A stretch of DNA of 64,000 bases, from sequence record PP449093.1, one strand, 5' to 3'. How positions within the stretch are numbered: the first letter of the stretch is position 1; the number at the start of each line of letters is the position of its first letter. Source of the DNA: Escherichia coli phage phiS. The translations under genes were made by a program, and so were the position numbers. This document shows positions 3,008 to 55,639 of the stretch, piece after piece. The notes below the pieces were generated by a model. That model was not told the origin of the DNA. It did no database searches and worked only from the letters and a program-made list of their open reading frames with translations.

Positions 3008-5116
3008 ATGAAAATGCATATTGATAATGAAGAAGTATTTGGTAGTGACCTGAGCGGTGCGGTTGATTTTTCACTGAAAGCAAGTAGCAAGGCTTTTATG
3101 GTGCTTTCTAAGAATACCTATCAATATTGTGAGCGTGCTTGCGTCCGTGAATATTCATGTAATGCTACCGACACTCACAAAGAAGCCGGAACCTTAGACC
3201 GTCCGTTTGATATTCATTTACCGACTGCAATCGAACCGTATTTTTCTGTGCGTGATTATGGTACTGGTATTCCGTCTAAGAAAGAATTAGAACAACTGTT
3301 TACGGTTTACTTTGAATCAACAAAAGACCAGACTAATGACTATATCGGATCTTTTGGTTTAGGTGCGAAGTCTGCGTATAGCTATACCGACACCTTTACA
3401 ATCGTAAACTATTACAATGGTCGCGCTTATGGCTTTACAGCATTTGTGCAAAACTCTATGCCGAAAATGGTGCAGATTTTCGACGAACCGACCTATGAAG
3501 ACAATGGTCTGAAAATCACTATTCCGGTGAAAGAAAAAGACATTCAGACATGGCATCGAGAAGCGCAATTTGTACTGCGTCATTTTGGGGAACACAAACC
3601 TAATATCAATGCAATCGAAATTAATTATTTCCCTAGCTTTGATAATTATTATGTGTGTAATGGGCGTGATAACGATTCCTATGTAGTATATGCAATCATG
3701 GGTAAGATTCAGTATCCGATCCCGTATGAATATGTTCGCGGAACATGGTTAGAAGCTGTAAACCGCCAGCACCAGACCATTTACATTAATTTTGAGTTGG
3801 GTGATCTGGACCTGATGCCATCGCGTGAAGAAGTTCACTTGTCAATTGAGACTAAAGCGAACATCGAAAAACGTATTGCAGAAATCAATGAAATGATGTT
3901 GGAAAAGGTCAAAGAGAAGATCGCCAACATTAAAACAGAGCGTAAACTTGCGCAATTTATGAGCGAGTATTCATCGACTCAACGCAATATTATTAGCAAG
4001 ATGGGTAAGATCGGACAATGGGATGATCCGGTAGCAATCTATAATAAGTTTGTGAATGCGGGTAAAGATTCGCCTAATGACGTAGAAGGTCAGGTGTATA
4101 CTCTGTATCGTACTCGTCACACAATCAGTAAATTGCGCCCTGCTTTCGTTAGAAGTCAATACAACATTACGCATTTTGTATGGATGCATAAAGAAGATAT
4201 TCTGTGTGTAATTGATGATACCGATAAACCGAAACTGCGTGCACTGACTCTTAACGGCATGGTCCAGGAATACGGAATCAATAAAAAGGTACTTGTGTTC
4301 CGTCAGCGCAACGAAAAACATATGGAGACTTTCGAGTACATCAAACAGTATTATGATGATTCTGAAATGACCGTGATTAAAGTGTCTGAGGCCGATGATC
4401 TGCGTGCTAAAGCAGTTAAACCGGAGAAGACCGAGCGTACACAACATGAAGCGACTCCTAAGCTGCCTAACGTGTATATCATGGAAAAGATTGGTGACAG
4501 TTGGCATAAAACCAGCCATCACATGAAAGCGGCAGAGATTCGCGAGTTATCAGGCTTGCACATGTTCCGCGTAGGTGATGCATTCGAAAGCCGTAGTCGT
4601 AAATCGATCCATAGTGAAAATACATTACACACGGCGCTTGACTACTTCGGGGTAACAAAGTATATTATTACCCGTAACGAGACACAAAAATATCTCGTTG
4701 ACGAACAATTGGAATGTGCGCTAGAATTTGTTCGCGGTAAGCTGGCTGGTCTGGCTAAGAAGGTTAAGACCAATCATCTGGGGTATGGCGAATATCTGGG
4801 TGTGATCACTATGTTGTTTCATGACGATGAACTAGAACGCTGTGTTCCAGAATTTATTGACAGACTGTACGGTCGTCATTATAATAAAGAGGTTTCCAAG
4901 TTACTCCTTCGCACCCGTTGGATTATGGACGAAGAAACTAAAAAGATTTGTGATGAAAAATTCACGGCAGCAAACGAACGAATTAAAGCAGTTTGTGCGA
5001 AGTTTAAAGAGAATAGCCCGTTACTGTATGATATTGTAGATAACTGGTATCGTATTCTGCATAACGACAAACGCGCACAAGACTTTATGAAACTGGTTAA
5101 GAATGTTAAATTTTAA
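3008..5116 (+). CDS. rIIA: rIIA protector-from-prophage-exclusion protein (GHKL ATPase-like)
   Basis: 702-aa ORF; histidine-kinase-like ATPase motifs (DYGTGIP, GSFGLGAKS); sits between gp39 and rIIB as in T4. Confidence 0.85.
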   Translation: MKMHIDNEEVFGSDLSGAVDFSLKASSKAFMVLSKNTYQYCERACVREYSCNATDTHKEAGTLDRPFDIHLPTAIEPYFSVRDYGTGIPSKKELEQLFTVYFESTKDQTNDYIGSFGLGAKSAYSYTDTFTIVNYYNGRAYGFTAFVQNSMPKMVQIFDEPTYEDNGLKITIPVKEKDIQTWHREAQFVLRHFGEHKPNINAIEINYFPSFDNYYVCNGRDNDSYVVYAIMGKIQYPIPYEYVRGTWLEAVNRQHQTIYINFELGDLDLMPSREEVHLSIETKANIEKRIAEINEMMLEKVKEKIANIKTERKLAQFMSEYSSTQRNIISKMGKIGQWDDPVAIYNKFVNAGKDSPNDVEGQVYTLYRTRHTISKLRPAFVRSQYNITHFVWMHKEDILCVIDDTDKPKLRALTLNGMVQEYGINKKVLVFRQRNEKHMETFEYIKQYYDDSEMTVIKVSEADDLRAKAVKPEKTERTQHEATPKLPNVYIMEKIGDSWHKTSHHMKAAEIRELSGLHMFRVGDAFESRSRKSIHSENTLHTALDYFGVTKYIITRNETQKYLVDEQLECALEFVRGKLAGLAKKVKTNHLGYGEYLGVITMLFHDDELERCVPEFIDRLYGRHYNKEVSKLLLRTRWIMDEETKKICDEKFTAANERIKAVCAKFKENSPLLYDIVDNWYRILHNDKRAQDFMKLVKNVKF

Positions 5117-50644: not shown

Positions 50645-50812
50645 ATGTTCGAGACTAAAGCAGCATGTGAAGCATATATCATTGAAACCTACGGTGAAGA
50701 TTATCTGAAATTTGACATTGTAGTAGCACAGAAGATTGTAGGGATGGTTGCGAAATACCTGGGTGTTAAAGAAGGTTACTATCCTAGCAACGCACCAGAA
50801 ATTAACAAATAA
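50645..50812 (+). CDS. hypothetical early protein (55 aa), paralog of 47388..47555
   Basis: About 85 percent identical to the 47388 product by eye; same promoter class. Confidence 0.55.
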   Translation: MFETKAACEAYIIETYGEDYLKFDIVVAQKIVGMVAKYLGVKEGYYPSNAPEINK

Positions 50813-50826
50813 TTTTATAAAAAGTG

Positions 50827-50855
50827 TTGACAGGGGAGGATAACTCCCCTACAAT
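50827..50855 (+). promoter_or_regulatory. early promoter with palindromic spacer GGGGAGGATAACTCCCC
   Basis: TTGACA, 17 nt dyad spacer, TACAAT. Confidence 0.6.
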
Positions 50856-50895
50856 ACAACCATCAAAACGAGATACCACTTAGGAGAATCAAACA

Positions 50896-51147
50896 ATGGC
50901 TAACATCGAAACCGCAAAGAAAATCGCTAAAGACCTGAACGTTAAAGGCTTCCGTAAACTGAAATTACAGCGTGTACGCTACACCATCGGCAAACAGTGC
51001 TCTTTCATGAGCGAAGAAATTGCTAACAGCCTGATTGATAACCTGATTGCGGCTGGCTGGGAAGTTGCGGATCTGAAAACTTGCCGCGAACTGGCTAACA
51101 AAGGTCTTTTAGATTCTGTTACTATCAAACCAATGGGGGCAGCGTGA
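50896..51147 (+). CDS. hypothetical early protein (83 aa)
   Basis: ATG after GGAGAATCAAACA. Confidence 0.6.
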   Translation: MANIETAKKIAKDLNVKGFRKLKLQRVRYTIGKQCSFMSEEIANSLIDNLIAAGWEVADLKTCRELANKGLLDSVTIKPMGAA

Positions 51148-51680
51148 ACAATATAGACTGGAAGAAATACTTTAATTATGATCCTGATACTGGTATTCTT
51201 ACATGGAAGGAGAGAACAGATATACACCCATCAAGAATAAAACAATGGAATGCTGCATGGGCTGGAAAGGAGGTCGGGTCACTAGGAAGTGGTGGACGTT
51301 ATCTTGAATCGTCAATAAAAATTGACGGTAAAATTATTAACTACAAAGTTCATCGAGTATGTTATATTATCCACAATGGACCTATACCAGAAGGATATGA
51401 AGTAGACCATATTAATCACATTAAGACAGATAATAGAGCGGTGAATTTTGAACTTAAGACACATCAAGACAACATGAGGAATCAAACAAAATCTAAAAAG
51501 AATACAAGCGGACACAGTGGAATACATAAAAACAAATACAATAAATGGGTAGTTAGAATTGGCAGCGGTCGTCGTGGTGATAGAAAATATCTAGGATGCT
51601 TCGATACATTAGAAGAAGCTATAGAGGTTAGAACCAAAGCAGAAAGAGAGCATGGCTATCATGAAAACCACGGAAAGTAA
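51144..51680 (+). CDS. HNH homing endonuclease with AP2-like DNA-binding domain
   Basis: VDHINHIKTDNRAVN HNH motif; C-terminal SGHSGIHKNKYNKWVVRI...YLGCFDTLEEA; GTG start overlapping the upstream stop. Confidence 0.7.
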   Translation: MNNIDWKKYFNYDPDTGILTWKERTDIHPSRIKQWNAAWAGKEVGSLGSGGRYLESSIKIDGKIINYKVHRVCYIIHNGPIPEGYEVDHINHIKTDNRAVNFELKTHQDNMRNQTKSKKNTSGHSGIHKNKYNKWVVRIGSGRRGDRKYLGCFDTLEEAIEVRTKAEREHGYHENHGK

Positions 51681-52386
51681 ACTTATATTCTGTAATTTTG
51701 ATGGGTCCGGTATCATGGGTCTAGAATGGGCGAAAGCAGGTCATAAGGTGATCTGCTTTAACGCAGATGATGCGGATCATGGAACATATAAAAAATACAA
51801 CACTCGATTTGAGCATCCCAACCTAACATATGTTAATGCATGGATTGACCTAGATTGGTTGGAAAGGGCAATGGACCTTGAATGGGGCAAACCGGATATG
51901 ATCTTTGCGTTTCCTAGCTGTTCAAATTTAGCGGTTAGTGGCGCTGCACATTTTGAGCGTAAGCGAAAAACTCTAGGTCCACTCATTCAGCATAGAGATG
52001 TTCAAACAGCTAAAATAACCGCTTATTTGGGTGAATGGCTAGGAGTTCCCTACATGATAGAGAATCCTGTAAGCGTTATCTCTAGCATGTGGCGTAAGCC
52101 TGATTATATGTTCCATCCGTGGGAATATGGCGGTTATTTGCCGGAAGATGATAAACATCCTACTTTTCCTGAGTATATTGCCGCCCGTGATATGTACCCG
52201 AAAAGGACTTGCTTATGGACCGGACAAGGCTTTATAATGCCAGAAAAGAAACCGTTGCAGATTAATAAAGGGTACAGTAAACAGCATTCTAAGCTAGGCG
52301 GGAAAGGAACGAAAACAAAGACTATAAGGTCACTTACCCCGCGAGGATTCGCAAAGGCAGTATTTGAAGCAAATAAGGATCTATAA
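51652..52386 (+). CDS. compact C5-cytosine-methyltransferase-fold protein (244 aa, no obvious target-recognition domain)
   Basis: Motif I FCNFDGSGIMG; motif IV-like FAFPSCSNLAVSG (Cys kept, Ser where PC has Pro); motif VI ENP; C-terminal RSLTPRGFAKAV resembles motif IX. Confidence 0.5.
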   Translation: MAIMKTTESKLIFCNFDGSGIMGLEWAKAGHKVICFNADDADHGTYKKYNTRFEHPNLTYVNAWIDLDWLERAMDLEWGKPDMIFAFPSCSNLAVSGAAHFERKRKTLGPLIQHRDVQTAKITAYLGEWLGVPYMIENPVSVISSMWRKPDYMFHPWEYGGYLPEDDKHPTFPEYIAARDMYPKRTCLWTGQGFIMPEKKPLQINKGYSKQHSKLGGKGTKTKTIRSLTPRGFAKAVFEANKDL

Positions 52387-52715
52387 TGAGATTGTTTAAG
52401 TATTCGCTAACGTCAAATTACGATAAACAAGGTCATTGCATCCGTTGCCCTGATTGTCATAACCATAACATCGAAAGCAAGATCACCGATCATATTGATG
52501 GACTTTGGTCGCCAGCAAGTGAAATAGAATACTATTGCGCTGATTGTGGAATTGTAGTAGCATATTGGGCATACGGATCATATGATCCATACTTCCAGAT
52601 GGGAGAGCGTTCAATCCCTGCGCTTATCTGGAGAATTAAGAACAATATCCGCCATTCATGGGATGAGTTATTAAAAGATATTGATTTACGTGATGATCCA
52701 TTCAGGAGACTATAA
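52386..52715 (+). CDS. zinc-ribbon protein (109 aa)
   Basis: CIRCPDC and YCADCG cysteine clusters; start overlaps upstream stop. Confidence 0.5.
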   Translation: MRLFKYSLTSNYDKQGHCIRCPDCHNHNIESKITDHIDGLWSPASEIEYYCADCGIVVAYWAYGSYDPYFQMGERSIPALIWRIKNNIRHSWDELLKDIDLRDDPFRRL

Positions 52716-52716
52716 C

Positions 52717-53235
52717 ATGAACAGATTAACCCCTAAACGCCGTTACTATACCAATACTAAAAACTTTGTCATCTCTGTTTATGAGGCGTGGTTAGAAGAT
52801 GGCTATATCAACATGAACCCAGATTATCAGCGTCCTTTGGTATGGGACACCGAAAACAAACGTATGTTTATCGAAAACCTGATTAATGATTTTCCGGTTG
52901 GTGCTATCGCAATGGCTAAGATTGATGATGGCTCTCGATATGAGATCGAAATCGTGGACGGTAAACAGCGTTTAAACGCAATATTCTCCTTCATGAAGGA
53001 TGAGTTTAGCATTGCTGGTAATGATGATTCTATGCTGTATTACAGTGATTTTACGCCAGCAGAAAAGCGACGTTTCCGAAATCTCGGACTACCCGCGATA
53101 ATGATGGAAGAGAGCACACGAGAAGACCGATTAGAGTATTTCTACAAAACAAACTTTTTCGGTGTCCCTCAATCGGAAGAACATCGCCAGCATGTGATTT
53201 CCCTATTGCAAGATGAGCAATTAAAAAATAACTAA
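52717..53235 (+). CDS. DUF262 / ParB-like nuclease-domain protein (172 aa)
   Basis: YQRPLVW and IVDGKQRLNAI (DGQQR-type) motifs; ATG after AGGAGAC; ORF-track start 52681 is TTG. Confidence 0.55.
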   Translation: MNRLTPKRRYYTNTKNFVISVYEAWLEDGYINMNPDYQRPLVWDTENKRMFIENLINDFPVGAIAMAKIDDGSRYEIEIVDGKQRLNAIFSFMKDEFSIAGNDDSMLYYSDFTPAEKRRFRNLGLPAIMMEESTREDRLEYFYKTNFFGVPQSEEHRQHVISLLQDEQLKNN

Positions 53236-53242
53236 AAAGTTG

Positions 53243-53272
53243 TTGACAGGGGGATCGGTGATCCCCTATAAT
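53243..53272 (+). promoter_or_regulatory. early promoter with palindromic spacer GGGGGATCGGTGATCCCC
   Basis: TTGACA, 18 nt dyad spacer with two GATC, TATAAT. Confidence 0.65.
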
Positions 53273-53308
53273 GCACACATACCGAAACGAACTACTAAGG
53301 AGTATCAA

Positions 53309-53521
53309 ATGGCTAACATCGAAATCATCATTACCGACGTAACTTATGACCGCATTAACGAAATCGGTACTGCATTACTGGAAGATGAAACAACTCGTAC
53401 CATCAACTACGCAGAATACGTTGAAATGCGTGGCTGGATTAAACGAGTAGGAAAATATACCCTGATTGAAAAAGACTATTCAGGATATACCTTAGAGCAA
53501 TTGCTCGATGGTGCATTATAA
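53309..53521 (+). CDS. hypothetical early protein (70 aa)
   Basis: ATG after AAGGAGTATCAA; N-terminus MANIE shared with the 50896 product. Confidence 0.55.
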   Translation: MANIEIIITDVTYDRINEIGTALLEDETTRTINYAEYVEMRGWIKRVGKYTLIEKDYSGYTLEQLLDGAL

Positions 53522-53587: not shown

Positions 53588-55639
53588 ATGTTTAACTTAG
53601 AAATCGACGATCTAATGATTGAATCTTTCGAGAAATGGCTGTTGACGGAAGAGGAAGAAAACTTTGGTAGTATTGCCCCGGTACAGTGCTTAAAGCCTAA
53701 GCAGAATCCTAAACAGCTTTTTGCAGTACAGACACGCGATAAAGATGTGATTGTCCGTCTTTGTAACTTCACCAACAAAACACCTAAAATCATTCGTATG
53801 GGTGACAAGACAGCACATGTTGTACTGTGCGAAATGAACAAAAGCGGTCGTATTGTACAGCTTAAAAATGGTCTAGGCGATAACCCGATTGCAGTTATGG
53901 CAAGTGCTTTTGATGTGGTTATGGAAACAGCCCGTAAAGCGCAATTAGACGCTGTTATGTTCCGTTTTAACGTATCCCGCATGAAAGGTAAGACCGAACT
54001 GGTTAAGCGCGTTATAGAGCGTTTGGTGCGTCGTACACCGAAGTTTGAAGTATTCCAGCAGGAAGTAATGACCAGCAAAAAGATCGCTTTAGTTGTTGTC
54101 AAGCGTCGCGGTATGGCGATTGATAAGATTAAAGGGATTAAACTTGATGATTCCTTGTTCACTAAAGTAGAAAGTGATTTAGGTGATCGCTGGGTATCTA
54201 AGGCTACTGGTGAATCTCTGACTAAAGATGAGGCGTATGCGGCTAGTCTTGTGTCAGAAGAAGAACGAAACGCGGAAGCGGAACAACGCGTAGCGGCTAA
54301 ATCTCGTTTGACTAAAGAAGAAATGCTGAAAACTCAAGCGACCTATAACAGCGACTATGTGAATCATCCAGAAAAAATTAATCTTAAACCGGAAGAAGAT
54401 ATCACCGAAGCCGAACCTAAGAAACAGTTTAATACTCTGATTGATCGTCAAGCCTTAGAACGTTCAACCGCTCGTTCTCTGAATGAATGGACAAGTGATA
54501 TTATCACTCGCTATGGTTTCATGCGTACTATTTTTGAAAGCGAAGCCGATGCAAAATACGCAGTAAGCGAACTGGTAAAAGTTCAGGATCAATATGATCC
54601 GTTGTCTGCGGAAGTTATCGCAGCATCAATCAAACGCTTAAAAGAAATCATGAGCGAGGAAGTATTCGAAAACAAGATCACCGCCCTGGCAATGGATCGA
54701 GTAGACCAGTCTATGCCAGCAGATGTAAAAGCTGAAATGCTGCGTAGTCATATCACCCAGATTAAAACCGATGCCCTACGTAATGTTGCTTCCGGTATGT
54801 TTGAAGCAATTGCTAGCAACATGGGTGAAATGATGGCAGATATTGATCTTGATCTGCCGGGCGCGGAAGGTTTTGTATTGAGCGAATATGCCGATGCAGC
54901 ATACATCAATATGAACAACTTCCTAACCGACCGTAAGCTGGAAGAGTTTGAAGGCATCGCAGATCCAGAAGAATTGGTCAAGATGTGCGATGCACTGGAT
55001 AATGCCTTCTCTAACTATGGTGTTAAACTTGATCCGGGTACTATTCTGTATCGTGGTATGGACTTCCGGTCGCAAATGTGGGAAACTGCACGTAAGCAAA
55101 AAGCGTTTTACTTTAAAAACTATGTGAGCACTTCCCTTGCACCTAACATTTTTGGTGGCTGGAATGCAAACGTGGCTAGTGCCATTGCTGGTGTTGATTC
55201 TATGGCTGGCTCTCGCGGTGAAGGTGGCGCTAATGTTGCTTTCTCCATTGCTGGCGCGGAAAACATCCCTGTATTGCCAGTAGGTAACAAAGCATTTGCT
55301 TACAAAGAATGCGAGATTTTACTTCCTCGCGGTGTTGTGTTATCCTTTGATACGGTAACTCGTGCTACGGCATCGACGGATTCACAAGAAACATATTACA
55401 TTGAGGCACATATTATGAACAAAAGTGAACTGGCAGCATTACAAGAATCTGGCGAAATGATCGCGGACGGTGATGCATTCATCCGTGAAGGTGTTGTTAA
55501 ACCTGCTTCTGACCTGTCTTTCTCCAGCTTCATTAGCGAAGCTAAAACCGAACGTAAGAAAGCAGATAAGGCAACTCTACGTCAGCTTATCGCTGATCTG
55601 GTATCTGTAGACGCAATGCCAGATAAATTTAAAATGTAA
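53588..55639 (+). CDS. alt: Alt-like ADP-ribosyltransferase (head-packaged type)
   Basis: 683 aa; N-terminal region resembles T4 Alt (LCNFTN...MGDK..H, LFTKVES.LGD); C-terminal R (YRG) - STS (VSTSLA) - ExE (ECEILLPRG) motifs. Confidence 0.8.
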   Translation: MFNLEIDDLMIESFEKWLLTEEEENFGSIAPVQCLKPKQNPKQLFAVQTRDKDVIVRLCNFTNKTPKIIRMGDKTAHVVLCEMNKSGRIVQLKNGLGDNPIAVMASAFDVVMETARKAQLDAVMFRFNVSRMKGKTELVKRVIERLVRRTPKFEVFQQEVMTSKKIALVVVKRRGMAIDKIKGIKLDDSLFTKVESDLGDRWVSKATGESLTKDEAYAASLVSEEERNAEAEQRVAAKSRLTKEEMLKTQATYNSDYVNHPEKINLKPEEDITEAEPKKQFNTLIDRQALERSTARSLNEWTSDIITRYGFMRTIFESEADAKYAVSELVKVQDQYDPLSAEVIAASIKRLKEIMSEEVFENKITALAMDRVDQSMPADVKAEMLRSHITQIKTDALRNVASGMFEAIASNMGEMMADIDLDLPGAEGFVLSEYADAAYINMNNFLTDRKLEEFEGIADPEELVKMCDALDNAFSNYGVKLDPGTILYRGMDFRSQMWETARKQKAFYFKNYVSTSLAPNIFGGWNANVASAIAGVDSMAGSRGEGGANVAFSIAGAENIPVLPVGNKAFAYKECEILLPRGVVLSFDTVTRATASTDSQETYYIEAHIMNKSELAALQESGEMIADGDAFIREGVVKPASDLSFSSFISEAKTERKKADKATLRQLIADLVSVDAMPDKFKM

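Follow-up and report, generated by a model that had tools for sequence, protein, structure and literature searches.

We analysed a stretch of 64,000 nucleotides (nt) from Escherichia coli phage phiS (sequence record PP449093.1), called here the window, and within it three adjacent genes at 51652-53235, whose products we refer to as P1, P2 and P3. An earlier note on this DNA had described them as a three-gene module made of a C5-methyltransferase-fold protein, a zinc-ribbon protein and a DUF262/ParB-like protein. The source phage is a Krischvirus, an RB49-like (T4-type) coliphage, and in this T4-type genus cytosine is normally unmodified. We consider it quite probable that the locus is one early Krischvirus transcription unit of independently acquired cargo genes, in which P1 is an orphan Dcm-like cytosine-5 methyltransferase.

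In the mechanism that we propose, P1 would act on double-stranded DNA once it has been replicated and would methylate cytosine at C5, using S-adenosylmethionine (SAM) and Cys90, together with Glu137 and Lys184/Arg185. This methylation would shield progeny DNA from restriction enzymes that cut the target site, probably CCWGG, at a cost that is known for the P1 family, namely triggering of retron Ec86. A gene for an HNH endonuclease would have been inserted immediately before the P1 gene, whose first ~330 nt next to it would come from a diverged dcm allele with Pro-Ser-Cys. P2 and P3 would be separate early accessory proteins with no tie to P1.

P1, a phage Dcm-like methyltransferase

Judged by its sequence, P1 is a member of a known, experimentally tested family of phage Dcm proteins, present here as an unusual mosaic allele. 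It matched the PHROG 757 family, 'DNA methyltransferase' (E = 1.5e-88), and in a BLASTP comparison it was 54% identical to Dcm of phage KarlJaspers (Bas06; bas06_0055, 236 amino acids (aa), E = 7e-90). Residues C82, E128, K175 and K176 of KarlJaspers Dcm align to C90, E137, K184 and R185 of P1, the K-to-R change being conservative. We found more than 3,179 homologues of P1, of ~230 aa, and 1,536 phage records with a relative, among them Drexlerviridae, Kagunavirus, rV5-like phages and Klebsiella siphoviruses. As another copy of a widespread, tested phage Dcm family, P1 needs no new biology. To our knowledge, few C5 DNA methyltransferases are as short as the ~230-aa proteins of this family.

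The family was put to an experimental test in phage K42, whose genome is 95.4% identical to that of KarlJaspers and whose escape mutants mapped to the 711-bp dcm gene (10.1101/2023.08.16.553469). Expression of K42 Dcm alone raised 5-methylcytosine (5mC) on multicopy single-stranded DNA (msDNA), as determined by liquid chromatography-mass spectrometry, and triggered retron Ec86; K42 Dcm C82A/E128A/K175A/K176A caused neither the 5mC rise nor the trigger (10.1101/2023.08.16.553469). A role of P1 in DNA C5-modification or anti-restriction, which the earlier note had listed as candidate roles of the three genes, fits this work on a 54%-identical homologue.

Motif I of P1 reads F16-D-G18-S19-G20 (the FxGxG SAM-binding loop), where G18, S19 and G20 are invariant in an alignment of 26 sequences and at least 90% conserved in an alignment of 121 sequences. 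Motif IV reads F87-P88-S89-C90 (51910-51921, with the Ser-Cys codons at 51916-51921); C90 is invariant in the family, and the residue before it is Ser89 here, as against the family consensus P-P-C. Motif VI, E137-N138-P139 (ENP, 52060-52068), is invariant in the alignment. In the 121-sequence alignment FDGSG, FPPCTDL, ENP and RSLTPRGFA are near-invariant. The three motifs in P1 (FDGSG, FPSC and ENP) read as the earlier note had claimed.

P1, with a length of 238-244 aa, has no full-size target-recognition domain between motifs VIII and IX, and its target-recognition region comprises ~75 residues (150-225) between the core motifs and RSLTPRGFA. The AlphaFold model of P1 had a pLDDT (predicted local distance difference test) of 90, and its top ten Foldseek matches in the PDB were DNMT3A/3B (E = 1.4e-7 to 4e-6); DNMT1, DIM2 and MET1 came next. 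The proposed C5-methyltransferase fold with a target-recognition domain that is too short is confirmed by the DNMT3A-like model and by the ~75-residue region. Pfam gave no family for P1 at E <= 1, PF00145 included, and a precomputed PF00145 match was present in only 3 of the 120 P1 homologues listed. The NCBIfam search returned nothing for P1 or P3, and searches of the PDB by sequence with P1, the P1 family profile or P2 as queries gave nothing meaningful.

Compared with the Dcm of K42 and KarlJaspers (PHROG 757), P1 is of similar length (238-244 vs 236 aa), is 54% identical from end to end, has its catalytic residues at corresponding positions and is predicted to adopt the same DNMT3A-like fold, and in all these phages the protein is encoded by an early accessory gene. 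P1 differs in having Pro-Ser-Cys instead of Pro-Pro-Cys, in the mosaic 5' third of its gene and in the host of this gene, which is a T4-type myovirus, whereas KarlJaspers and K42 are T1-type siphoviruses. DNMT3A/3B, the best structural match, share with P1 the Rossmann-type C5-methyltransferase core and an unusually small target-recognition region; however, identity is 10-16%, the TM-score is 0.4-0.5, and P1 is of phage origin and has neither regulatory domains nor a DNMT3L-like partner. The E. coli Dcm and EcoRII methylases have the 5mC chemistry and the presumed CCWGG target in common with P1 but, unlike P1, contain a full target-recognition domain. Bacterial Dcm/EcoRII methylases are roughly twice as long as P1. 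Since P1 has no PF00145 match, any specificity shared with E. coli Dcm would be convergent.

By analogy, the target of P1 is probably CCWGG. The window contains 22 CCWGG sites, compared with 51.5 +/- 7.6 in shuffled sequences, and the Markov observed/expected ratio (O/E) of 0.33 corresponds to an approximately 3-fold depletion. The most depleted palindromic pentamers in the window by the Markov ratio were CCWGG (O/E 0.33), CCSGG (0.29) and GGSCC (0.11). In practice, P1 may protect Krischvirus phages from restriction at its target, taken to be CCWGG, and may at the same time expose them to retron Ec86.

Bulk DNA of two Krischvirus phages has been analysed in a study of the Durham Collection. 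In TB34, high-performance liquid chromatography with mass spectrometry (HPLC/MS) found canonical cytosine only, and SAP, 99.96% identical to TB34, contained hydroxymethylcytosine (hmC) and glucosyl-hmC made by a pathway stated to be unknown (PMC13390438). TB34 carries the intact trio yet has canonical cytosine; therefore a nucleotide-level pathway, which the earlier note had also listed for these genes, or one of bulk hypermodification is unlikely. Site-specific 5mC would be a tiny fraction of cytosine and could not be told from host methylation in phage grown on dcm-positive cells. P1 may therefore be active despite the negative HPLC result for TB34.

The SAP modification could in principle be ascribed to the trio, if the 5mC made by P1 were then oxidised and glycosylated. 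Room for such a proposal is left by the lack of known synthases and glucosyltransferases in Krischvirus genomes and of a known pathway in SAP (PMC13390438). We give it almost no credence. In an aligned region of 6.5 kb P1-P3 were identical in SAP and unmodified TB34, no dioxygenase or glycosyltransferase was found in the unit with Pfam and PHROG, and a site-specific methylase cannot explain replacement of all cytosines. The comparison of TB34 with SAP thus already contradicts this explanation. Within this region the two phages differed only by an offset of two bases at the end, by four upstream homopolymer indels of one base each and by a tandem duplication of 79 bp. We considered this duplication as a possible key to the cytosine modification of SAP and rejected it, as it is a promoter-cassette duplication only and the trio is identical. 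It concerns a PeSL cassette (an early promoter with an internal stem-loop) just after P3, at 4140-4218 in SAP compared with ~4139 in TB34, and corresponds to ~53225-53305 in the window.

Occurrence of P1, P2 and P3 in other phages

The P1-P2-P3 trio was annotated in every Krischvirus relative examined. Beyond Krischvirus the three genes did not occur together: tblastn detected no relatives of P2 or P3 within 6 kb of P1 relatives in 78 of 78 non-Krischvirus viral loci, and P1 relatives were almost always without P2 or P3. The three-gene module of the earlier note is therefore only partly supported, as P1 stood alone in all 78 loci.

P3 gave the same picture. Its relatives were found in T4-type phages (RB16-like, Slopekvirus and POP12) and in the prophage ST64B, where the neighbours were unrelated to P1 or P2. 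No neighbour family recurred in 72 further viral loci with P3 relatives, and an amino-methyltransferase-like motif was present within two genes in ~6 of these 72. Nor did the neighbours of Miro, ST64B and other P3 relatives include any relevant family. Two candidates were rejected, namely a 109-aa open reading frame (ORF) upstream of the RB16 P3 relative as a homologue of P2 (E = 0.92) and a 250-aa ORF upstream of the POP12 P3 relative as a methylase (hhalign probability 0.1, no methyltransferase match in Pfam). At locus L095 (3953-5507) the start of the P3 relative is overlapped by a gene whose 357-aa product contains the motifs SGYGG and SPPY and gave a weak N6_N4_Mtase match. We found no second DUF262-only gene that was coupled to another class of DNA methylase.

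P2 is a zinc ribbon with four cysteines (CxxC...CxxC) and a weak match to Zn_Ribbon_TF. Its relatives in Nonagvirus 9g and Felixounavirus lie among replication or nucleotide-metabolism genes, and no methylase or DUF262 gene was found near them. We infer that P2 is a separate early accessory protein.

Two loci close to Krischvirus bear on the coupling of the genes. The metagenomic contig L098 (20-1528), which is more distant and Krischvirus-like, contains a gene for an 83-aa protein that also opens the phiS unit, P2 (65%), a 46-aa ORF and P3 (56%), and no methyltransferase (P1) gene was found at this locus. Because P2 and P3 are kept there without P1, P1 is separable from both. The P2 homologue of this contig, at 510-836, had been missed by the gene caller. 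In phage kaaroe (L088) a 59-aa ORF at 3031-3210, homologous to the 46-aa ORF of L098, lies between P2 and P3, so tight P2-P3 coupling is not universal in the genus. The adjacency of P2 and P3, which was seen only in the Krischvirus lineage, may be inherited gene order.

Several points weigh against an orphan P1 within a unit of independent cargo genes. The trio is strictly retained across ~56 Krischvirus genomes and is tightly coupled, which is compatible with cooperation. The P3 relative at L095 overlaps a gene for an SPPY-type amino-methyltransferase, and one phage ParB is known to activate an enzyme that modifies DNA bases although it has no DNA-binding domain of its own (PMC13229309). As to P1 itself, the CCWGG target is assumed by analogy with E. 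coli Dcm, the support being only a site mutation in msDNA (10.1101/2023.08.16.553469). CCSGG is depleted as much as CCWGG (O/E 0.29), so the depletion is not specific evidence. Further, judging from its motif IV, with Ser89 in place of the usual proline phiS P1 could be weak or inactive.

The first of these points may be taken further, and the trio may be viewed as a working unit in which P3, perhaps with P2, would load, activate or target the P1 enzyme, poor in target-recognition domain, on double-stranded DNA. The stop and start codons of P1, P2 and P3 overlap or abut, none of the matched Krischvirus records lacks any of the three genes, and both the L095 overlap and the ~6 of 72 P3-relative loci with an amino-methyltransferase-like motif within two genes agree with such cooperation. 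There is also a precedent, ParB176, a phage ParB without a DNA-binding domain that activates the thymine dioxygenase 5mYOX176 on double-stranded DNA (PMC13229309). Like P3, ParB176 has a ParB fold and is encoded beside the gene of an enzyme that modifies DNA bases after replication. Unlike P3, however, the 5mYOX-associated ParBs belong to PF02195, have a C-terminal dimerisation domain and consistently co-occur with the enzyme, whereas P3 has no conserved partner. We regard a working unit as improbable. P1-family enzymes were alone in 78 of 78 non-Krischvirus loci, and K42 Dcm alone sufficed for 5mC on msDNA in E. coli (10.1101/2023.08.16.553469). Moreover, L098 has P2 and P3 without P1, the extra ORF of kaaroe separates P2 from P3, and the neighbours of P3 relatives are heterogeneous. 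Independent cargo genes sharing one unit remain the explanation that we favour.

P3, a single-domain ParB/DUF262 protein

P3 scored 73.3 bits with Pfam GmrSD_N/DUF262 (PF03235; E = 3.9e-20), the gathering threshold being 33.2, and contains the motifs YQRPLVW, DGKQRL and NFFGVPQSEEH. Residues Y37-Q38-R39..V42-W43 and D81-G82-K83-Q84-R85 are invariant in its clade, with K replacing the first Q of DGQQR. The DUF262/ParB-like identity given in the earlier note thus holds with regard to the Pfam score of 73 bits and the YQRxxVW signature, while the second motif was misread, being DGKQR and not DGQQR. The AlphaFold model (pLDDT 88) matched PadC, Noc, cytidine triphosphate-bound ParB and the BrxU N-domain in Foldseek, and the P3 family profile matched solved DUF262 chains (9jfl, 20yv and 7p9k; including BrxU, SspE weakly).

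The protein ends after DUF262, and neither a C-terminal DUF1524 HNH-type nuclease nor any other Pfam match was found; the ParBDB DNA-binding domain is absent as well. DUF262 proteins of defence systems join ParB-DUF262 to a DNA-binding ParBDB domain and effectors (PMC12065111). In PADLOC, P3 matched NsnA (E = 1e-20), covering only positions 47-188 of the 385 in the profile, and PD-T4-2_A, again only in the N-terminal ParB-DUF262 part.

A word-index search for P3 relatives gave only 7 of them, so an exhaustive profile search was needed, and it yielded 71 cluster representatives at E <= 1e-30. The best 150 representatives were short, in most cases 143-344 aa and nearly all ~165-190 or ~270-345 aa, apart from two fragments of 92 and 128 aa. 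DUF262 reached the C-terminal end in almost all of these 150, and DGKQRL and NFxGVPQSEEH were common. The longer relatives (many of ~270-290 aa) have an N-terminal extension of ~110-140 aa, and the extensions of the ~280-aa relatives gave no domain in Pfam. Many P3 relatives come from viral contigs and phage genomes. By its sequences the clade is one of bare DUF262 domains, mostly phage-borne. We infer that P3 is most likely a nucleoside triphosphate (NTP)-binding switch of the ParB type which acts via protein partners, not DNA, and possibly against host defences.

GmrSD/BrxU, SspE, DndB, NsnA and DzbA have in common with P3 an N-terminal NTP-binding domain of the ParB/DUF262 type, which carries (Y)QR and DGxQR. 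P3 differs from them in being phage-encoded, in having DGKQR, and in lacking ParBDB, DUF1524 and any other effector. The clade matters since full-length DUF262 proteins are central to several defences that sense modified DNA.

This leads to an explanation in which P3 would be an anti-defence decoy, a bare DUF262 domain that would pair or compete with host DUF262 sensors of modified DNA (GmrSD/BrxU, DzbA of Dazbog, NsnA of Menshen, SspE) that P1-made 5mC could trigger. P3 covers only the ParB-DUF262 part of NsnA and PD-T4-2_A and has no effector domains, its clade is short and mostly ends right after DUF262, and many of its relatives come from viral contigs and phage genomes. Expression of a phage C5 methylase makes Dazbog, a system with DUF262 in its first protein, toxic (10.1101/2022.08.27.505566). 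BrxU cleaves 5mC DNA, yet TB34, which carries the trio, was not restricted by BrxU (PMC13390438); however, the escape of TB34 is more simply explained by its canonical cytosines. P3 relatives were also present in phages with no detectable P1-type gene nearby. On balance, we find a decoy unlikely, and we keep to P3 as a separate cargo protein.

The transcription unit, the HNH gene and the Ser-Cys allele

We compared positions 50800-53400 with phage records. There were 63 records matched with ~95% identity, except for a block of ~530 nt, and the gene order without the HNH gene is annotated likewise in GEC-3S, TB34, SAP, kaaroe and ELT3. Beyond P1-P3 the unit also carries an 83-aa ORF and the HNH gene. 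Its features are as follows.

50827..50855, + strand: PeSL cassette, early promoter with internal stem-loop, start of the unit (TTGACA-17-TACAAT, 11/12 matches)
50896..51147, + strand: 83-aa ORF (phrog_14908), first gene of the unit (PHROG E = 1.3e-58)
51144..51680, + strand: free-standing HNH endonuclease gene (Pfam HNH_3 E = 3e-17; phrog_99 E = 2e-55)
51652..52386, + strand: P1, Dcm-like C5-methyltransferase, 244 aa (phrog_757 E = 1.5e-88)
51679..52007, + strand: divergent 5' segment of P1, putative co-conversion tract (clustered nucleotide differences)
52386..52715, + strand: P2, 109-aa zinc-ribbon protein (phrog_2993 E = 1e-33)
52717..53235, + strand: P3, 172-aa ParB/DUF262 protein (Pfam GmrSD_N E = 4e-20)
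53243..53272, + strand: next PeSL promoter cassette, marking the end of the unit (TTGACA-18-TATAAT, 12/12 matches)

The layout reported in the earlier note was recovered in full: three tightly coupled ORFs (51652-52386, 52386-52715 and 52681/52717-53235), flanking promoter cassettes at 50827 and 53243 (11/12 and 12/12 matches) and a preceding HNH endonuclease (51144-51680, HNH_3 E = 3e-17). The end of the HNH gene overlaps the start of P1, the P1 stop and the P2 start overlap as TAATG, and the P2 stop sits one base before the ATG of P3 (52717), which is preceded by a ribosome-binding site. Judging from these signals, this ATG (172 aa) and not the TTG at 52681 is the likely start of P3; P1 may instead start at the ATG at 51661. 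No other sigma-70 match in the region is as good as these two promoters, and both fit TTGACAGG-stem-loop-CCYAYAAT, for which 0 chance matches are expected. PeSL cassettes are known as shuffling modules in RB49/phi1 (PMC2839356), and the phiS unit, bracketed by such cassettes, resembles the PeSL-mediated gene shuffling of those phages. The 83-aa ORF has 99% nt identity to other Krischvirus genomes and a homologue in contig L098 as well.

The P1 gene of phiS is mosaic. Its closest database protein is at most 92% identical, whereas P2 and P3 are 98-100% identical to their relatives. When phiS was compared with five Krischvirus genomes, 64 of the 79 phiS-specific nucleotide differences lay within 51679-52078, and the divergent stretch begins at the HNH junction and ends abruptly near 52007 (~330 nt). 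In this tract the proportion of synonymous differences (pS) was 0.775, so that synonymous sites are essentially saturated, and that of nonsynonymous differences (pN) was 0.088; in the rest of the P1 gene pS was 0.089. The divergent tract is under clear purifying selection (pN/pS ~0.11).

In phiS the HNH gene stands in place of an 81-aa ORF of other Krischvirus genomes. It was absent from the five other Krischvirus genomes compared, and no high-identity copy was found in any phage record. A sensitive nucleotide search revealed an orthologous HNH gene (65% aa identity) in Tempevirinae (Drexlerviridae, T1-like), where it immediately precedes dcm and overlaps it. Poky, PeterMerian/Bas05, BEK12A and JLBYU phages are among the carriers, and the match crosses the HNH-dcm junction. 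The coordinates of these HNH-dcm pairs were 1486-2689 in L179 and L180, 1186-2389 in L182 and 1186-2116 in L181.

From its sequence and setting, the HNH protein is likely a free-standing homing endonuclease, whose gene would have entered with flanking DNA from a diverged dcm donor encoding Pro-Ser-Cys. A T1-like donor was rejected, because the divergent segment was no closer to the Dcm of Poky, Bas05 or Bas06 than the standard Krischvirus allele; the donor would therefore be a diverged Krischvirus-like allele. The phiS HNH gene resembles the T4-type free-standing homing endonucleases (Seg/Mob) in its presence/absence polymorphism and in its sharply bounded divergent flank. It differs from them in that the HNH-dcm pairing spans two unrelated phage families.

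All other Krischvirus copies of P1 have Pro-Pro-Cys, and so do 112 of the 113 listed homologues with a readable motif. Ser-Cys, which the earlier note had pointed out, is indeed present (S89-C90), but it is an allele of a single phage and not a trait of the family, as the relatives have Pro-Pro-Cys. The source of this allele was sought with a degenerate pattern in IMG/VR and in metagenomes with an exact 26-mer, and the HNH protein was looked up by exact match; none of the three gave a hit. The three HNH-linked Tempevirinae alleles that were read (Poky, PeterMerian and BEK12A) have Pro-Asp-Cys at motif IV, and in Salmonella phage GS71 the dcm gene that follows HNH has lost motif IV through an internal deletion. 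Altogether, the proline before the cysteine was replaced in 4 of 4 intact HNH-linked alleles as compared with 2 of 86 HNH-less ones (Fisher p = 6e-6, uncorrected for phylogeny and with only two independent HNH-linked lineages). The HNH-less alleles without the proline have Pro-Ser-Cys (L007) and Pro-Gln-Cys (P0106). Since L007 has Pro-Ser-Cys without HNH, the Ser variant arose more than once. The L007 gene (6001-6690) encodes a P1 relative with 62% identity and the sequence FAFPSCTDM, and no HNH gene lies directly upstream.

These data suggest the hypothesis that HNH would target motif IV DNA and that substitutions of the proline would confer immunity. If so, phiS P1 might be dead or crippled, the Pro-to-Ser change having been selected for destroying the HNH target, and the gene would persist as an immunity allele and not for its enzyme. 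Most descriptions of the motif treat this proline as invariant and required (PMC2965745). It was replaced in all four HNH-linked alleles with an intact motif IV (PSC in phiS; PDC in Poky, PeterMerian and BEK12A), PPC was found in 84 of the 86 HNH-less alleles (p = 6e-6, phylogeny uncorrected), and GS71 lost motif IV downstream of the same HNH. Nevertheless, we rate a dead enzyme as rather unlikely. The divergent segment shows strong purifying selection (pN/pS ~0.11), the cysteine and all other P1 motifs are intact, PSC and PQC also occur in HNH-less alleles (L007 and P0106), and there are only two independent HNH-linked lineages. A serine backbone, moreover, could still supply the proline's hydrogen bonding to the substrate.

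A joint explanation, in which P3 would activate or target a minimal Dcm, or shield 5mC from host DUF262 sensors, and HNH, as a homing endonuclease specialised on phage dcm genes, would target their Pro-Cys DNA and thereby time and again drive replacement of the proline (by Ser here and by Asp in Warwickvirus), so that the enzyme is reshaped or disabled, has in our estimation a small chance of being right. With P1 as an orphan Dcm among independent cargo, the main residual interest lies in the association of HNH with dcm and with the loss of the Pro-Cys proline, and in the bare DUF262 clade found largely in phages. HNH-linked dcm alleles without the proline in two unrelated phage families would point to a possible selfish endonuclease that shapes the active site of an enzyme.

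Two small genes downstream of the unit, at 53588-55639, we observed a gene for an Alt-like RNA polymerase ADP-ribosyltransferase (phrog_802, E = 3e-180), which confirms the context of a T4-type early region.

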